Source: Escherichia phage anhysbys. Taken from it: DNA of 64,000 bases. Both the position numbers and the translations under genes were made by a program. The notes below the pieces were generated by a model. It had not been told where the DNA came from. It did not search any database and saw only the letters and a list, made by a program, of their open reading frames with translations. Below are positions 2,342 to 7,691 of this stretch, one piece after another (position 1 is the stretch's first letter; each line of letters starts with the position of its first letter). The stretch lies in the sequence record NC_052656.1. One strand, written 5' to 3'.

Positions 2342-2935
2342 TTACCAAGGAATATCATCTTCTTCCAATCTGGTATCTACTTGAGGTGGACGTGGAACCT
2401 TAACCTCTTTCACAAAACGAAGATATGGGAAACGTGTAGCAATTTTAATAACATGTTTGGCATCTTCTCTAACATCTTTGTGCAAGAAGCAGATCCCTGT
2501 TTCCAAGGTTGTTTCAAAATCTTTAGAATAATAACAGTCCTTCCCATCAAATGCAGCCTGGCAGATGGACAGATCGAACTCATTTAGAAAGGTTGTCATT
2601 ACGCTTGGTTCCATAATCATAAGGTTGCAAAGCTGACCATCACGTTCAAACTCAAAAACGTGTTTAAGACCAGTAACACCTTCATAATTGTCAGAAGCCT
2701 CTTTGTTCCCTAGTTTACGAATATTGGTTCCCATTAAAGCAGATGCAATTAATCCTTGTATTTGTTCTTCAGTCCGATGTGCAGGAAGGGATGTATAGAA
2801 ATCCAGATCACGTCCAGCAATATCAAGAATACGCCAATCACGAACAGCACCGCCAGCCAAGACAGAATTAGGATCAGCGATCTTTAATATGGTAAGAATT
2901 TCTTTGGCAATATTGATTTGTTTTGATTTAGTCAT
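2342..2935 (-). CDS. Minimal nucleotidyltransferase of the CCA-adding/poly(A) polymerase head-domain type
   Basis: Motif LAGGAVRDWRILDIAGRDLDFYT matches the GGxVRD...DxD signature of class II tRNA nucleotidyltransferases; only 197 aa. Confidence 0.5.
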   Translation of the reverse strand: MTKSKQINIAKEILTILKIADPNSVLAGGAVRDWRILDIAGRDLDFYTSLPAHRTEEQIQGLIASALMGTNIRKLGNKEASDNYEGVTGLKHVFEFERDGQLCNLMIMEPSVMTTFLNEFDLSICQAAFDGKDCYYSKDFETTLETGICFLHKDVREDAKHVIKIATRFPYLRFVKEVKVPRPPQVDTRLEEDDIPW

Positions 2936-3146: not shown

Positions 3147-3323
3147 TGTTTTCTCCTTATACTTCTAAACGGAAAGTTTCTTTAGATACAAAATCGTATC
3201 CACCTTTTTCAAGCCAATCATTGTAAACCTCATCGGCTTGAGACTCTATCATAAAATACCGAGTGGTAACTTCGTCTCCGACAATACGCACAATTTTATA
3301 GCAAATCATGATACCATTTCCCA

Positions 3324-3515
3324 TTAATCTTCCTCCAGATCAATTTCATTATAACAATGTATACAGAAACCATCATTGTGCATATGTTGTTCATAAGACA
3401 TATCTTTACCACAAGACCAACAACGGATATCCCCATCGTCCCATTCACGTTCTTCTTCACCTTCAAATTCATCTGGTAGGTAAGGCATACCAAAATAATC
3501 TAAATCGTAACTCAT
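3324..3515 (-). CDS. Small zinc-ribbon protein (start moved to internal ATG with AGGAG RBS)
   Basis: CWSCG...CIHC pairs of cysteines; RBS aggagaagat before ATG at 3515. Confidence 0.4.
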   Translation of the reverse strand: MSYDLDYFGMPYLPDEFEGEEEREWDDGDIRCWSCGKDMSYEQHMHNDGFCIHCYNEIDLEED

Positions 3516-3528
3516 ATCTTCTCCTATA

Positions 3529-3546
3529 AAGGGGCAGAAGCCCCTT
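3529..3546 (-). terminator. GC hairpin downstream of DNA polymerase stop
   Basis: aaggggcttctgcccctt on the minus strand; weak U-tract. Confidence 0.35.
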
Positions 3547-3564
3547 ATAAAACAATACGTTAGA

Positions 3565-6500
3565 TCAATGACAGGATGCCCAAGAATTACCCACATCATA
3601 TCCGGCAGTAAGCTGAACATTAAGATTGTAAAATTCTCCAGCCTTAGTAACAGCTAAGGCAGCAAGTTCACCTGCCCGACTATAGGCTGTAAACCATCCA
3701 CCTTTGGGAGATTCATGAATGTTAGCCCAAATTTGTCCCGTCTCTTTTTCCTTATTATGCTTCCATTCTTCAACTTTAGCAAGGCATTCTTTATCAATTT
3801 TCTTTTGTTCTTCAGGATCGTCTACTTTCTTCCAACCTAACGATTCAGGTGAAAACCATTTGAATTCTACAAGGTTACGAGAAACTTCAAGCTGGGCTTC
3901 ATCGTGATATGCGATCATTTGTTGCACGAAGTCTTTATTCTTCCAGTCATCTTTAAAGAAGTCAACACTTAGTCCTTCTTCTTCGATCATGTCGTCATAA
4001 ATAACCATTGCACGTTTAGCACAGATAACCCCACCACTTTGGAACAGAGAGTTAAGAATCGCGTGAGCAGAACGAGTAGGAACCTTACGACCGTCAATAC
4101 CCAAAACATATTGTTTACCAGTCTTAACCCAGAAATCGTTTAAACGTTCTTTAAGACGCGCCAATGGGAATGCAGCTTCCCAGAAAGCATCGAACACCAA
4201 TTGACCTGTAAACTTATCGCTACCAATTGTTTTAGCAACCTTGTCGGCTTGTGCACCATAGGTAATACCATACTTAACAGATTTAGCAGGACTACGTTCA
4301 AATTTACGTCCAATAGTTTCAGTGATACGTTTTGCCATCATTGTGTGAACATCATTAGGTTTCTCTAACAACAGAGCGTTACAATATTCGTGTGGCTCCG
4401 GCTCGTACCGCCAACAGTTTCCTGTGATGGTAATGCAGTCTTTCTGACGCATGACCCACGTACCAAGTTCTGTTTGTGGACACCAAACATCCTCTACACC
4501 CCACTCTTCAATAGTCAAACTTTGAACAGGAATGTGAGAGCGGTTAGTCAATGTTGCCACTTTTACTTTCTGCTCTTTTGTATTGAAAGCTACAGAGATA
4601 TTGCCTCCATGCACCAGGTACGAGGCAGTTAAAGCTGCTTCAAAAAGTTCACCTGGGTTCTGCGCCCAACGCCAAACAGGTTTTTGTTTATGTTCGTGCC
4701 AGTAACCATCTGCAATCAAGAAACCTTCCAAGAAAGCTACACGCTCGGCATGAGACATATTAACTACACGTTCTACCCACGGAACATCCCATTTACCTTG
4801 TTGAACAGAAGTTAAACTATTTACCTGATCTTGTTCCATGTTAAATGGAGCATTACAAATAATGTTATCTCCTGTGCAAAGCTCGGCAGTTGTTCTGACT
4901 TTAGGCACATAAGTATTCCCTTTACTACGGGTATTAACATACCAACGGTGATCTGCTGTTGCACGGTAAGTGTGTGATTTCCCTTTAATCTCAAACGTCT
5001 TACTATTTTTATAGAAGACCTTACCTTTTACTTTAGTCCATTCTTTCAGACCTGTTTCAGCATTGTACCCTAAAATCTCATCCCCTTCCTTCAGGTCGTG
5101 ATATCCTACCCAACCTTTACGAGTCAAAGCTTGAGCATCCATCGGCACACAGTAGTGTGATTCAATTTTTGCTTCCAAAGAGTCGAAGTCGTAGCCAATC
5201 TGGAAGTACTTAGGAACCTCTACACCAAACAAGTTACGCATCTCCCATCCAAACAAAGATGTGACACGAGGAATATTAGCTACAGACCTATGCTTCATAC
5301 GAGAGGTTGCAGCATCACATGTAGCTGCTGGGGTAGGAATACGACCATCCGCCCTTACTGCGGCTAAGAAACCTTTATCATATTCTTGATCTTCCTCATC
5401 TTCTTCCCAATCAGCACCACCGCCTAAAATAGAGTTCCTACGATGCTTATACGTTAAGTATTCTACAATCTGTGTAGCATAAGGGAATTTCTCACCTAAA
5501 GCTTGCAGGTTAGGACAGATTTCTTTTTCCTGACCTTTGGTAAAACATGGGTTAGTCAATACTTTAAGACCGCGACCCTTACCTTTTGCTATACGCTCTT
5601 GAATCTTCCTCTCCAAGGTTTCCGGTGTGCACTCCAGATGATCACAACGATCCTGACAAAAATTAGAAGACAGAGTTTGCTCAACGTAAGCTCGAATACC
5701 TTTCTGAAGTTCTTCCTCGCTCTTTTTAATCTTGGTGCCAGATTTAAGAGTCAAGTCTTTATCTTTATATTCAGACGGTACCCAACCTAATCCTACAAGC
5801 CAGTTTTTAATATGGGTAGTATCGTTCAATGTTGCAGGGATATTAGGATCACACAAAGGCTCATCTGCTGCAACTGGTAGTTTCCACTCTTTCCCCAACA
5901 TAACTAACCACCAATCGCCATCCCTCTCTTCCAAATGACCATCATGTTTCTTAGCAAAATTGATCATATGGTTAGTTGGCTCTAAGTTCTTTTTAATTTG
6001 CAACTTAGGTGGAATAAAAGCCTTAAGATAACCTTTTGTTGCTGGTTTAGGTGGCAAAATAGGCTCAACGAGTAAACGAAGACGCTCCATTTCTGCATCC
6101 AAAAAAGCAAGGTTCTCTTCTGCTTGCTTCATGTTAAAAGCAAACCCACGGTGTTCCTGGCGTGTAATAATGTCTGCTACACGTTGTTCAAGTTCAAATG
6201 GACCTTCCCATTTATCATAATCACCCCATTCTTCCATAAGGTAATTATATACGCTCGTATTGGCTTTGTTGTCATAGATACAGTAATAAAGCATATCCGC
6301 AGCAAAAGTCTTAAATCGATCTTCTTCTGGAATCTCTTTACGGAAATCTATTTTTACATCACCACCTGCTTTTCGAGAAAGTGCTGCCAAGCTATGTCCT
6401 GATTTGCCCTCAATCTTTCGATCTGGGTTTAACACTTTACTCAAAATCAAGGAGTCAATAAGTTTTACCTTATTTTTGCCCCACGTATTATATTTAACAC

Positions 6501-6897
6501 TGTAATCTAAACCATAAAACAGTTTTGTAGCCAACCAGTCATAGTTGATACCGTTGTGAGCCACAGCCATTTCAACCAGATATTCAGGCTTATCTTTAAA
6601 ATAACCTTCATGATTAATAAAGTCTGGGAAATCTTTTAGTTGAAAATGTGTGTAATCTTGCGCCACATACTCTTTAAGAACATATGTGTATTTACCATCT
6701 GACTCTTCATAAGGACGCCCATCAAAGATGTATTTAGGGCCATCGTGGAAAGCTACTATTTCTCCTGTTTCATGGTTCTCTAAGACAATACAGTGCATTT
6801 GAAATGTGTCTTTGAGACGATAAGGACTAGCTAAATAATCGATAGTGTCATTATTCAACAATCCGTTTGCTTCAATATCCCATGTAAACTTACTCAC
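3565..6897 (-). CDS. Family A DNA polymerase with 3-prime-5-prime exonuclease domain, interrupted in frame by an intein
   Basis: Exo motif DIEANGL; motif A GYDFDSLEAKIESHY (cf DYSQIELRIMAHL); motif B RSPAKSVKYGITYGAQ; motif C AYHDEAQLEV; 245-aa insertion between motifs A and B. Confidence 0.85.
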   Translation of the reverse strand: MSKFTWDIEANGLLNNDTIDYLASPYRLKDTFQMHCIVLENHETGEIVAFHDGPKYIFDGRPYEESDGKYTYVLKEYVAQDYTHFQLKDFPDFINHEGYFKDKPEYLVEMAVAHNGINYDWLATKLFYGLDYSVKYNTWGKNKVKLIDSLILSKVLNPDRKIEGKSGHSLAALSRKAGGDVKIDFRKEIPEEDRFKTFAADMLYYCIYDNKANTSVYNYLMEEWGDYDKWEGPFELEQRVADIITRQEHRGFAFNMKQAEENLAFLDAEMERLRLLVEPILPPKPATKGYLKAFIPPKLQIKKNLEPTNHMINFAKKHDGHLEERDGDWWLVMLGKEWKLPVAADEPLCDPNIPATLNDTTHIKNWLVGLGWVPSEYKDKDLTLKSGTKIKKSEEELQKGIRAYVEQTLSSNFCQDRCDHLECTPETLERKIQERIAKGKGRGLKVLTNPCFTKGQEKEICPNLQALGEKFPYATQIVEYLTYKHRRNSILGGGADWEEDEEDQEYDKGFLAAVRADGRIPTPAATCDAATSRMKHRSVANIPRVTSLFGWEMRNLFGVEVPKYFQIGYDFDSLEAKIESHYCVPMDAQALTRKGWVGYHDLKEGDEILGYNAETGLKEWTKVKGKVFYKNSKTFEIKGKSHTYRATADHRWYVNTRSKGNTYVPKVRTTAELCTGDNIICNAPFNMEQDQVNSLTSVQQGKWDVPWVERVVNMSHAERVAFLEGFLIADGYWHEHKQKPVWRWAQNPGELFEAALTASYLVHGGNISVAFNTKEQKVKVATLTNRSHIPVQSLTIEEWGVEDVWCPQTELGTWVMRQKDCITITGNCWRYEPEPHEYCNALLLEKPNDVHTMMAKRITETIGRKFERSPAKSVKYGITYGAQADKVAKTIGSDKFTGQLVFDAFWEAAFPLARLKERLNDFWVKTGKQYVLGIDGRKVPTRSAHAILNSLFQSGGVICAKRAMVIYDDMIEEEGLSVDFFKDDWKNKDFVQQMIAYHDEAQLEVSRNLVEFKWFSPESLGWKKVDDPEEQKKIDKECLAKVEEWKHNKEKETGQIWANIHESPKGGWFTAYSRAGELAALAVTKAGEFYNLNVQLTAGYDVGNSWASCH
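4417..5151 (-). mobile_element. Intein (Hint domain with LAGLIDADG-like homing-endonuclease motif) within the DNA polymerase
   Basis: Starts CVPMD (Cys codon at 5149-5151), block B TADHRWYV, LAGLIDADG-like AFLEGFLIADGYW, ends ITGN followed by Cys; extein resumes CWRYEP. Confidence 0.6.
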
Positions 6898-7691
6898 TAT
6901 TCCTCCTTTCTAATGTTCTCCAGAACCCACTGAAGTTCTTTTAAACTTAAACTTCTTACTCCCGCAGTTTTACTAGCTTCAGCTTTAAGTAACGGGTAAG
7001 CCTCAATGATACGCGTTTTAAGATCAGAAGTCAAGGCTTTTAAAAAATAGGTAGATGCTTCAGATAAAGAATCTTCTTCTGATAACACTTTACCTGCACT
7101 TGCTCCCGCTCTCCTAACGGCTATATCGTAGTCTTTACTGTTACCTAATACGAATAGTCGATTCTCTCCTAAAACAACGGGAGAACGCTTCTCGTTGCGT
7201 TTAATCCATATCTGGAATACACAAGGAACATCCCAAGGTTCTCCATGAAGAATAAAAGATCCTTTTGGACATTCTTCTTCGTAAAGAAGATGCATGTGGG
7301 GATTTAGTTTGTGTGCAAAAAAGATTTTTTGAAATGTGCGAGGCAAGATAAAACAAATACCACCTTCGTTATCCAGCATTTCAGCACAATGGTTAAAGAA
7401 TTTAATGGCAAGACTAGCATTTTTTCCAAATGGAGGATTACCGACAAAAGCAGTTACACTACCAACAGACTCAACAGATTGAGCTAAAAAATCTGCCTCA
7501 ATACAATCTTCAAACTTAGGGTCAATATCAAAAGAAGTTATGTTTTTAAAACAAGAAGAGAAAGCTCCTTCTCCCGCAGATGGTTCTACGTAGTTAGCTT
7601 CCTCTCCAAAAATTTCTTTGATCTTATCACATAAGAACCCCGCATAAGCGGGGTTAGTGTAATATTGATCAAGTGTGTTCAACTTGCTCAA
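6897..7691 (-). CDS. N6-adenine DNA methyltransferase
   Basis: SAM motif EPSAGEGAF and catalytic motif NPPFG. Confidence 0.7.
   Translation of the reverse strand: MSKLNTLDQYYTNPAYAGFLCDKIKEIFGEEANYVEPSAGEGAFSSCFKNITSFDIDPKFEDCIEADFLAQSVESVGSVTAFVGNPPFGKNASLAIKFFNHCAEMLDNEGGICFILPRTFQKIFFAHKLNPHMHLLYEEECPKGSFILHGEPWDVPCVFQIWIKRNEKRSPVVLGENRLFVLGNSKDYDIAVRRAGASAGKVLSEEDSLSEASTYFLKALTSDLKTRIIEAYPLLKAEASKTAGVRSLSLKELQWVLENIRKEE

Follow-up and report, generated by a model that had tools for sequence, protein, structure and literature searches.

The window analysed here, 64,000 nucleotides of Escherichia phage anhysbys (NC_052656.1), carries on its minus strand an open reading frame for a family A DNA polymerase (Pfam DNA_pol_A, E=2e-11). 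The encoded precursor is 99.5-99.9% identical to proteins named 'DNA polymerase I' in Phapecoctavirus, the genus of phAPEC8-like coliphages to which the source phage belongs. Directly after polymerase motif A the 1110-aa frame contains the 245-aa in-frame insert of the original prediction, whose exact coordinates were borne out (Table 1). The N-extein ends in motif A (...DFDSLEAKIESHY); the reverse complement of 4417..5151 then reads as 245 codons, beginning with Cys, as predicted, in TGT GTG CCG ATG GAT (CVPMD; 5151-5137) and closing with ATC ACA GGA AAC (ITGN), the last base of which is 4417 and which is followed by the expected Cys codon, TGT. With a GC content of 0.42 in the intein versus 0.39-0.41 in the exteins, base composition gives no sign of a foreign origin. 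An HMM of the intein family described below found no second member among all 332 six-frame stop-to-stop open reading frames of at least 60 aa in the window. A search of eight neighbouring window reading frames for a free-standing homing endonuclease that could mobilise the intein ('collaborative homing') gave no Pfam match. As a separate observation, an HNH gene lies downstream in some sister phages, whatever their intein status.

Table 1. Polymerase precursor, intein and sequence motifs in the window. Intein block positions (B:12, F:4, G:5 etc.) are defined as in PMC2807308; fractions are counts among 120 aligned family members; a slash marks a junction, here and in the text.
Feature	Positions	Strand	Basis or conservation
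Precursor: family A DNA polymerase with intein, 1110 aa + stop	3565..6897	-	ORF list
N-extein, aa 1-582, ends in polymerase motif A	5152..6897	-	Alignment with intein-less phAPEC8 polymerase; nucleotide junction
Polymerase motif A, YDFDSLEAKIESHY	5152-5193	-	End of N-extein
Intein, 245 aa, CVPMD...ITITGN	4417..5151	-	
Block A, CVPMDAQALTRKG	5113..5151	-	C1 and G13 each 120/120
Cys1 codon	5149-5151	-	
Block B, SHTYRATADHRWYV	4936..4977	-	T65 120/120, H68 120/120, W70 119/120
Thr65 (B:7); His68 (B:10); Trp70 (B:12)	4957-4959; 4948-4950; 4942-4944	-	
Single LAGLIDADG half-domain, about aa 120-205	4537..4794	-	
LAGLIDADG motif helix, HAERVAFLEGFLIADG	4705-4752	-	
Asp148; Gly149	4708-4710; 4705-4707	-	
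Gln164, in LAGLIDADG half-domain	4660-4662	-	Invariant
Block F, DVWCPQTELGTWVMRQ	4444..4491	-	C224 120/120
Cys224 (F:4)	4480-4482	-	
Block G (CITITGN/C)	4414..4437	-	T243 120/120, G244 119/120, N245 120/120
Thr243 (G:5); Gly244 (G:6); Asn245 (G:7); Cys+1	4423-4425; 4420-4422; 4417-4419; 4414-4416	-	
C-extein, aa 828-1110, starts CWRYEPEPHEY	3568..4416	-	phAPEC8 alignment; nucleotide junction
Polymerase motif B, RSPAKSVKYGITYGAQ, 41 residues past insert	4249-4296	-	
Site of a second, different intein of sister phages	between 4267 and 4266	-	

At this conserved site directly behind motif A, related phages either carry the insert or lack it precisely. Alignment with related polymerases that lack it, the check proposed with the original prediction, gave a clear picture: the phAPEC8 polymerase is 865 aa long, 99.9% identical at the amino acid level, and without exactly these 245 residues. 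In phAPEC8 and other sisters the empty site reads ...ESHY/CWRY..., and at the nucleotide level the empty allele runs GAATCACACTAC/TGTTGGCGGTAC across the junction. Five intein-less polymerases of 865 aa (phAPEC8, SF1-1, Mt1B1_P17, UP17 and tuntematon) have flanks that are identical from -45 to +46 nt. Because near-identical polymerases do without the segment, it is not a conserved domain of homologous polymerases, and its identification as an intein between motifs A and B stands. The same 245-aa intein occupies the same site (IESHY/C...TGN/CWRY) with 97.6% amino acid identity in phages PaulScherrer (Bas60, bas60_0044) and SD2, where GenBank records MZ501100 and PQ821640 already annotate it as an intein, in the PaulScherrer type with a mat_peptide that is off by one Cys codon; it is also present, unannotated, in phi92 gp159. 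These carriers share the subfamily Stephanstirmvirinae with the window phage but belong to another genus (Justusliebigvirus), and their exteins are only about 72-79% identical in nucleotides to those of the window.

The full intein residue set is present: Cys1, Thr65 and His68, block F, terminal Asn245 and Cys+1. The class 1 residues Cys1, Thr B:7 and His B:10, the latter two in the predicted TxxH (TADHRW), are all invariant in the family, whereas the usual Asp of class 1 at F:4 is replaced by Cys. The intein lacks both His residues that usually assist Asn cyclisation, G:6 and F:13, which means that an efficient cleavage at its C-terminus must be assumed. At G:6, where inteins usually but not obligatorily have a penultimate His, stands Gly244, as had been pointed out; the same Gly in 119 of the 120 family members means that it is no defect of the window copy. 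Functional inteins without the penultimate His are documented (PMC4031507, PMC5050341). One of these, the class 1 intein of mycobacteriophage Bethlehem gp51 (RDF), also has a penultimate Gly, in an unrelated host protein and with no WCT triplet reported; its change to His led to precursor accumulation (PMC5050341), so that the Gly is functional there. Missed in the first reading was the WCT triplet of class 3 inteins, which is complete in W70, C224 and T243.

A search with the insert finds 2205 protein clusters at E<=1e-3, of which 794 remain at E<=1e-10; its family thus exceeds 2000 metagenomic clusters. Residue conservation was counted in 120 aligned members that are only 25-50% identical: C1, T65, H68, C224, T243 and N245 are invariant, W70 and G244 are found in 119, and the +1 residue is Ser in 52, Cys in 38 and Thr in 30. 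Insertion sites include several in PolA as well as others in DnaB-type helicase and further proteins. Most members have one LAGLIDADG motif, not two; among the 166 with measurable length, 21 are 300-341 aa long, the size of the two-motif nepoznato intein. Mini-inteins of 142-163 aa lack the LAGLIDADG domain, so splicing as such does not require it.

Profile libraries scarcely register these proteins. With the insert as query, Pfam Intein_splicing scores 16.6 bits (cut-off 35.8), LAGLIDADG_3 scores 12.8 bits (cut-off 22.5), and NCBIfam gives no match; the best E-value of Intein_splicing among 31 family members is 2.6e-4. The sub-threshold scores indicate that the family is poorly covered by Pfam. 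A PDB search with the single sequence returned weak intein matches only. A profile built from the family detects the class 1 inteins NrdJ-1, DnaX and gp41-1; the class 3 intein AceL NrdHF is matched at E=1.6e-4, with better scores for NrdJ-1 and DnaX, and there is no match at E<=1 to Msm or Mch DnaB-1, which are canonical class 3 inteins. In the literature searched, neither this intein nor any one-motif LAGLIDADG intein is described, which is absence of evidence only. Large and little studied, this phage family unites catalytic signatures of two intein classes with half of the usual homing endonuclease.

The AlphaFold2 model of the intein (pLDDT 89.5) predicts a HINT splicing domain with one inserted LAGLIDADG half-domain, and its top structural matches are all inteins. 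The LAGLIDADG-like motif of the original prediction (LEGFLIADG, D148-G149) is present, refined to a single half-domain in place of the usual pair. This half-domain is predicted to adopt an alpha-beta-beta-alpha-beta-beta(-alpha) core, in which the LAGLIDADG helix terminates in an acidic residue; by topology, Gln164 may lie at the end of beta-2, like Gln47 of I-CreI. Both parts of the intein are under strong purifying selection, with omega of 0.015-0.02 in the HINT part and 0.03-0.05 in the central domain. Relative to KP13-16, dN is lower in the intein (0.078) than in the exteins (0.12-0.16), though synonymous sites are saturated in this comparison. A decayed endonuclease remnant was rejected in view of the omega of the central domain and the conservation of active-site-type residues.

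Within Phapecoctavirus the inteins differ at 0-5 of 735 nt and the exteins at 30-87 of 2595 nt (40-86 among six phages with inteins that differ at 0-5 nt), and intein carriers within the genus are not monophyletic; together, these patterns point to recent spread. The window extein is closest to that of intein-less phAPEC8, the window intein has the same sequence as that of EF1-1, whose extein shows 52 differences, and the window flanks show the empty-allele haplotype right up to the junction. Between genera, dS is 0.12-0.5 for intein codons 41-245 (0.05 against phage cardinal) and about 1-1.5 for the exteins, and over its first 40 codons the intein has diverged as far as the exteins have (pS 0.78). 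A recombination breakpoint of the inter-genus exchange thus lies within the intein, near codon 40; the polymerase gene itself has a mosaic structure. Such a breakpoint indicates that ordinary homologous recombination between co-infecting phages is operating, and this process alone, without an endonuclease, could be behind part of the intein's spread. A LAGLIDADG enzyme with a single motif is expected to work as a homodimer and to recognise a pseudo-palindromic target. At the empty site, palindromic symmetry within +-30 nt was not above chance: the best score, 6/11, was also the most frequent best score in 2000 shuffles, which ranged from 5 to 9.

The element is very probably an intein that is both functional and mobile, lodged in the essential family A polymerase of this phAPEC8-like coliphage. 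Given that many isolated phages are viable with this polymerase interrupted between motifs A and B, we infer autocatalytic excision, by which the 1110-aa precursor would splice itself after translation. Cys1, aided by Thr65 and His68, would form the N-terminal thioester; the N-extein would be transferred to Cys+1, possibly through block F Cys224; and Asn245 would cyclise without the usual penultimate His. Splicing would release a free intein of 28 kDa and leave an 865-aa polymerase identical to the one that the intein-less allele encodes. With less certainty, the free intein or the precursor may cut or nick the empty allele during co-infection through its single LAGLIDADG active site (Asp148 and Gln164), acting as a homodimer or as a nickase, and recombinational repair may then copy the intein into that allele.

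Two other readings of the insert would deny it splicing or homing. One takes it for an accessory domain that stays in the polymerase and never splices, which would accord with most GenBank records, which name the 1110-aa protein simply DNA polymerase I. We rejected this reading and give it almost no credence, because viable sister phages with 99.9% identical exteins lack the insert precisely, because its position splits the palm between motifs A and B, and because the splicing residues are all invariant across a family housed in unrelated host proteins and the predicted fold is that of an intein. The half-domain might instead provide no active endonuclease and be retained as a scaffold, DNA-binding or regulatory module, the intein spreading solely by homologous recombination between co-infecting phages through the highly conserved flanking polymerase sequence. 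One LAGLIDADG motif means one active site per chain, the target shows no palindromic symmetry, the breakpoint within the intein and the mosaic gene speak for recombination, and purifying selection could stem from keeping an essential polymerase splicing-competent. We nevertheless think it unlikely that the endonuclease is inactive. Catalytic-type Asp/Glu148 (118/120), Gly149 (119/120) and Gln164 (120/120) are kept in a family otherwise so diverged, and mini-inteins of the family show that splicing does not depend on the domain; moreover, the intein is far less diverged than the exteins within the genus, and flanks of the empty-allele type up to the junction are what site-specific invasion would leave. 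Among known enzymes, the homodimeric, single-motif I-CreI, I-MsoI and I-CeuI are intron-encoded or free-standing and not embedded in a HINT domain. Homodimeric single-motif LAGLIDADG endonucleases cut pseudo-palindromic sites (PMC2655683), and target symmetry of the I-CreI type is not seen at the empty site of the window phage. The intein endonucleases TliVMA and PhoVMA (7QSU, 7QSS), PI-SceI, PI-PfuI and PI-PkoII, unlike the window intein, have two LAGLIDADG motifs in a monomeric, pseudo-symmetric arrangement, are 360-540 aa long with extra DNA-recognition regions, and end in His-Asn.

A further rival concerns splicing chemistry only, not the identity of the intein: splicing could be of class 3 type or run as a relay, in which Cys224 would take the N-extein from Cys1 to form a block F branched thioester and then pass it to Cys+1. 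We regard this as possible, without favouring it. Class 3 inteins (MP-Be DnaB, Msm, Mle and Mch DnaB-1, Bvi IcmO) share with the window family Trp B:12, Cys F:4 and Thr G:5, the F:4-to-G:7 spacing and phage association. They are, however, defined by the absence of Cys1 (no Cys, Ser or Thr at position 1), residue 1 being dispensable and variable in them and Cys F:4 essential for their obligate block F branched intermediate, whereas the window family has Cys1 in 120/120 members, Gly instead of His at G:6 and often Cys+1. That the family profile detects class 1 inteins but neither Msm nor Mch DnaB-1 also counts against this rival, as does the fact that Cys is the second commonest F:4 residue among inteins generally (PMC4031507). 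In the class 3 census of 2020, which comprised 1701 inteins, 'no cysteine in their N-end' was a requirement (PMC7891396). AceL NrdHF (PDB 6ZGQ), a class 3 intein, differs in being naturally split, in Ala1, in Met for Trp at B:12 and in lacking an endonuclease domain. A bolder joint claim, which we hold to be quite improbable, would have these proteins form a phage-borne clade with Cys1 and the full class 3 Cys-His-Thr/Trp (WCT) set, splicing by a Cys1 to Cys224 to +1 relay or redox-gated by a Cys1-Cys224 disulfide. This clade would be the living form of the 'standard phage intein' proposed as the class 3 source, and its one-motif LAGLIDADG would be the first homodimer or nickase intein endonuclease. 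Tori and Perler are said to have tested, in 2011, WCT inteins with Ser1 or Cys1, some of which reportedly splice by the class 3 route.

The same host gene and genus also harbour a 324-aa PolA motif B intein, in Phapecoctavirus nepoznato, ukendt and nieznany. It belongs to the same CVP...TGN/C family with 32% identity, and differs in having two LAGLIDADG motifs and a site 50 codons downstream (KYG/.../TYGAQ; TAT/ACGTGGAGATAT). The two inteins are never found together.

An intein in a phage polymerase is ordinary, and this one is already annotated in sister genomes; a 2024 paper has no inteins reported in coliphages (PMC11162368). Curated profiles overlook the family of more than 2000 clusters to which it belongs. 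Being compact, at 245 aa, and having a single LAGLIDADG core, the intein might offer a new scaffold for splicing and endonuclease engineering. The occurrence of invariant Cys1 and the class 3 WCT triplet in one family bears on an open dispute over the origin of class 3. One view, that of Tori and Perler as cited in PMC3196547, derives class 3 inteins from a standard phage intein; the other takes their origin to be convergent, since an attempt to graft WCT onto a class 1 intein was unsuccessful (PMC7664689). Finally, one essential gene exists in three natural alleles (no intein and either of two inteins) in easily grown E. coli phages, which makes intein homing and its fitness cost directly measurable.

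The original prediction of an intein in the family A DNA polymerase is correct. Every feature it described, among them the CVPMD start, the ITGN end, the Cys that follows and the place after motif A, was found where it had put it, with ...YDFDSLEAKIESHY, which is polymerase motif A, upstream of the insert and motif B (RSPAKSVKYGITYGAQ) starting 41 residues past it. Tblastn against phage genomes places the window in Phapecoctavirus, among the phAPEC8-like E. coli myoviruses in subfamily Stephanstirmvirinae. Among the matches listed, 20 records are 99.5-99.9% identical over the full 1110-aa protein; others, including phAPEC8, SF1-1, Mt1B1_P17, UP17 and tuntematon, match in two pieces that together span just 78% of the query, at 99.9% identity. 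The alignment to related polymerases that had been suggested as a check favours an intein: these near-identical sister polymerases are 865 aa long, read ...AKIESHY/CWRYEPEPHEY... at the junction and lack exactly the 245 residues.

Coordinates of the polymerase gene, its inteins and neighbouring elements (L003, L007, L009 and L011 are sister-phage loci)
Feature	Position	Strand	Remarks
Polymerase precursor ORF, 1110 aa	3565..6897	-	Largest ORF of the window; Pfam: family A DNA polymerase
Intein, 245 codons	4417..5151	-	Reverse complement: TGT GTG CCG ATG GAT (CVPMD) to ATC ACA GGA AAC (ITGN)
Cys codon right after insert	4414-4416	-	
b-type intein	L003:3501-4472		In polymerase motif B; would fall between window 4267 and 4266
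HNH genes / UP17 ORF downstream of polymerase	L011:3460-3530, L007:2728-2795, L009:2728-2795		Window equivalent ~3300-3565

For the ORFs at 6897-7691 and 2342-2935 (-), the sister-phage annotations are N6-adenine methyltransferase and tRNA nucleotidyltransferase/poly(A) polymerase; the window copies gave no Pfam match at E<=0.01. ARAGORN found no tRNA genes in the whole 64-kb window (1-64000), and none of its 332 six-frame stop-to-stop ORFs of at least 60 aa holds a second intein of the same family.

Annotations of the window's intein already exist in the genomes of sister phages, and it is an element of known kind. MZ501100 (PaulScherrer, BASEL collection) carries an 'intein-containing DNA polymerase precursor' with mat_peptides for polymerase and intein, and PQ821640 (SD2) is annotated likewise. 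Because Cys codons flank both junctions, the boundaries in MZ501100 are ambiguous by one codon, and its intein mat_peptide (L001:3232-3966) is off by that much, giving VPMD...GNC instead of CVPMD...GN. The BASEL paper states that inteins were identified during annotation and says nothing further of them (PMC8594841); no paper describing the window's intein was found in the literature searched. The 245-aa element occupies the same site in Justusliebigvirus (phi92, PaulScherrer, cardinal and others; 97.6-98.8% amino acid identity) and in Klebsiella phage KP13-16 (90.6%).

When 1.84 billion representative proteins were searched exhaustively with phmmer, 2205 clusters matched at E<=1e-3; of these, 794 reached E<=1e-10 and 78 reached E<=1e-30. 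Among the best 150 matches, 119 span all 245 residues as a single stretch of 229-264 aa, and every one of these starts C-V-P-(M/L)-D-(T/S) and ends I-T-I-T-G-N-(S/C/T). Lengths are trimodal in a sample biased to the query architecture, with four mini-inteins of 142-163 aa, 136 members at 225-274 aa and 21 at 300-341 aa. Most hosts are family A polymerases, split at several different conserved sites; the hosts also include a DnaB-type primase-helicase and a family of small proteins whose junction reads FDVYP/.../SAYANGW. This last family is abundant in metagenomes and a frequent host (P0002, P0003, P0004, P0006 and about 60 others); a few of its proteins have a precomputed PF19846 match. P0005 and P0002 share a host protein, but the intein of P0005 is a 163-aa mini-intein with no LAGLIDADG domain. 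Some metagenomic proteins hold two family inteins each, about 20 residues apart (P0027, 288-546 and 567-810; P0040, 294-553 and 574-802).

In a 120-sequence family alignment, C1 (A:1), G13 (block A), T65 (B:7), H68 (B:10), Q164 (central domain), C224 (F:4), T243 (G:5) and N245 (G:7) are invariant. W70 (B:12), G149 (LAGLIDADG motif) and G244 (G:6) are present in 119 members and D/E148 (LAGLIDADG motif) in 118. At position +1, 52 members have Ser, 38 have Cys and 30 have Thr. The near-universal Gly244 makes the penultimate Gly a family trait. Mycobacteriophage inteins offer a precedent, in which changing this Gly to His impaired processing (PMC5050341).

W70, C224 and T243 fall exactly at the positions of the WCT triplet (Trp B:12, Cys F:4, Thr G:5) which, together with the lack of a position 1 nucleophile, defines class 3 inteins; these start splicing from Cys F:4 via a block F branched intermediate (PMC2807308, PMC5222942, PMC4031507). 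The spacing of 21 from C224 to N245 is also that of MP-Be DnaB (C320/N341), Msm DnaB-1 (C118/N139), Mle DnaB (C124/N145) and Mch DnaB-1 (C124/N145). True class 3 chemistry, or a relay through Cys224, is a serious alternative, to which we give an appreciable but minority probability. Unlike class 3 inteins, however, this family keeps an invariant Cys1. Tori et al. found Ser1 or Cys1 in only 3 of 37 WCT inteins (PMC2807308), and when 1701 class 3 inteins were later catalogued, any with an N-terminal Cys were left out by definition (PMC7891396). The family profile matches NrdJ-1 (2e-5), DnaX (4e-5), AceL NrdHF (1.6e-4) and gp41-1 (1e-2) and gave no match to Msm or Mch DnaB-1 at E<=1; by this measure the family stands no nearer to the canonical class 3 inteins than to those of class 1. 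Given the invariant Cys1 and this lack of profile closeness, we leave it outside class 3. Splicing most likely follows a class 1-like route initiated by Cys1, because a dispensable residue 1 would drift.

An alignment of the window's intein, with five flanking extein residues at either end, and 87 homologues gave a confident AlphaFold2 model (mean pLDDT 89.5, pTM 0.88); the BFVD model for the ZCKP1 polymerase, an independent one, superposes on it at 2.0 A. The top Foldseek matches of the AlphaFold2 model in the PDB are exclusively inteins, HINT (splicing fold) domains and bacterial intein-like domains. Pfam Intein_splicing (16.6 bits vs 35.8 needed) and LAGLIDADG_3 (12.8 vs 22.5) stay below threshold. 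The central segment runs helix-strand-strand-helix-strand-strand, the LEGFLIADG helix first, and is thus predicted to be one LAGLIDADG core, not two.

Between the window and Justusliebigvirus alleles, omega is ~0.024 for the intein, 0.015-0.02 for HINT and 0.03-0.05 for the central domain; 52 synonymous and six non-synonymous differences separate the window's intein from that of PaulScherrer. The comparison with KP13-16 shows saturation at synonymous sites (pS 0.80) and a lower dN in the intein (0.078) than in the exteins (0.12-0.16). Since mini-inteins with the family's splice-site set and without the central domain exist, conservation of this domain is not explained by splicing alone; together with the conserved Asp148, Gly149 and Gln164, it argues for a working DNA enzyme.

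The inteins of six Phapecoctavirus carriers differ at 0-5 of 735 nt and their exteins at 40-86 of 2595 nt, and carriers are not monophyletic by extein comparison. Specifically, window and EF1-1 have identical inteins, yet 52 extein differences; the EF1-1 extein is nearest intein-less SF1-1 (37 differences) and that of the window nearest intein-less phAPEC8 (30 of 2598 positions, insert removed). Around the junction GAATCACACTAC/TGTTGGCGGTAC the window is of the empty-allele type, with the nearest differences from phAPEC8 at -45 and +46, while the five other intein-carrying alleles compared all differ from it already at -3. Such a pattern is expected if an empty allele of phAPEC8 type was invaded recently and precisely, with co-conversion over a very short tract. 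Between genera, dS is 0.05 for intein codons 41-245 (compared with cardinal) and ~1-1.5 in the flanking exteins, whereas codons 1-40 are saturated (pS 0.78). The contrast within the intein places an inter-genus exchange breakpoint there, between two intein-bearing alleles; ordinary recombination contributes as well.

The homing model has a weak point: single-motif LAGLIDADG enzymes act as homodimers on pseudo-palindromic sites (PMC2655683), and the empty site has no symmetry above chance. A homodimer might tolerate an asymmetric site, the HINT domain might aid DNA binding, or a monomeric nickase might make a nick that phage replication turns into a break. Beside the window's polymerase gene, no gene for a free-standing endonuclease able to act in trans can be detected. 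A free-standing HNH endonuclease gene lies directly downstream of the polymerase in EF1-1 (intein-plus) and SF1-1 (intein-minus), and intein-minus UP17 has an unannotated ORF of like size and position; the window has there a 98-aa ORF (3324-3620) with CxxC...CxxC motifs and no Pfam match.

Twelve records carry a different, b-type intein of the same CVP...TGN family, with 324 aa, two LAGLIDADG motifs and 32% identity to the window's, inside motif B (KYG/CVPVDN...TLTGN/C-TYGAQ). Among the carriers are nepoznato, ukendt, nieznany, phiWec187, AV126 and four 'Campylobacter phage' records; in none of the 12 does it occur alongside the window's intein. b-type polymerases show a dense substitution tract from pol nt 1519 to 1963, over both insertion sites, which looks like co-conversion from a distant donor. 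The tract rewrites the window's insertion site to TAT/ACG TGG AGA TAT..., giving Thr+1, and this would probably protect b-type phages from the window's intein. Separately, the polymerase genes of 'Campylobacter phage' records MG065639, MG065645, MG065650, MG065656 and MG065689 (A150, A145, B15, C3, A110a) are at least 99% identical to those of E. coli Phapecoctavirus; probably the hosts were mislabelled or contaminants were sequenced.

Neither the Cys1/WCT/Gly combination, nor the one-motif domain, nor the three-allele coliphage system was described in the literature searched. What lifts the finding above the routine is the family-wide union of Cys1 and a penultimate Gly with the WCT triplet of class 3, a one-motif LAGLIDADG domain under purifying selection, and a tractable coliphage system with empty, a-type (the window's) and b-type alleles.
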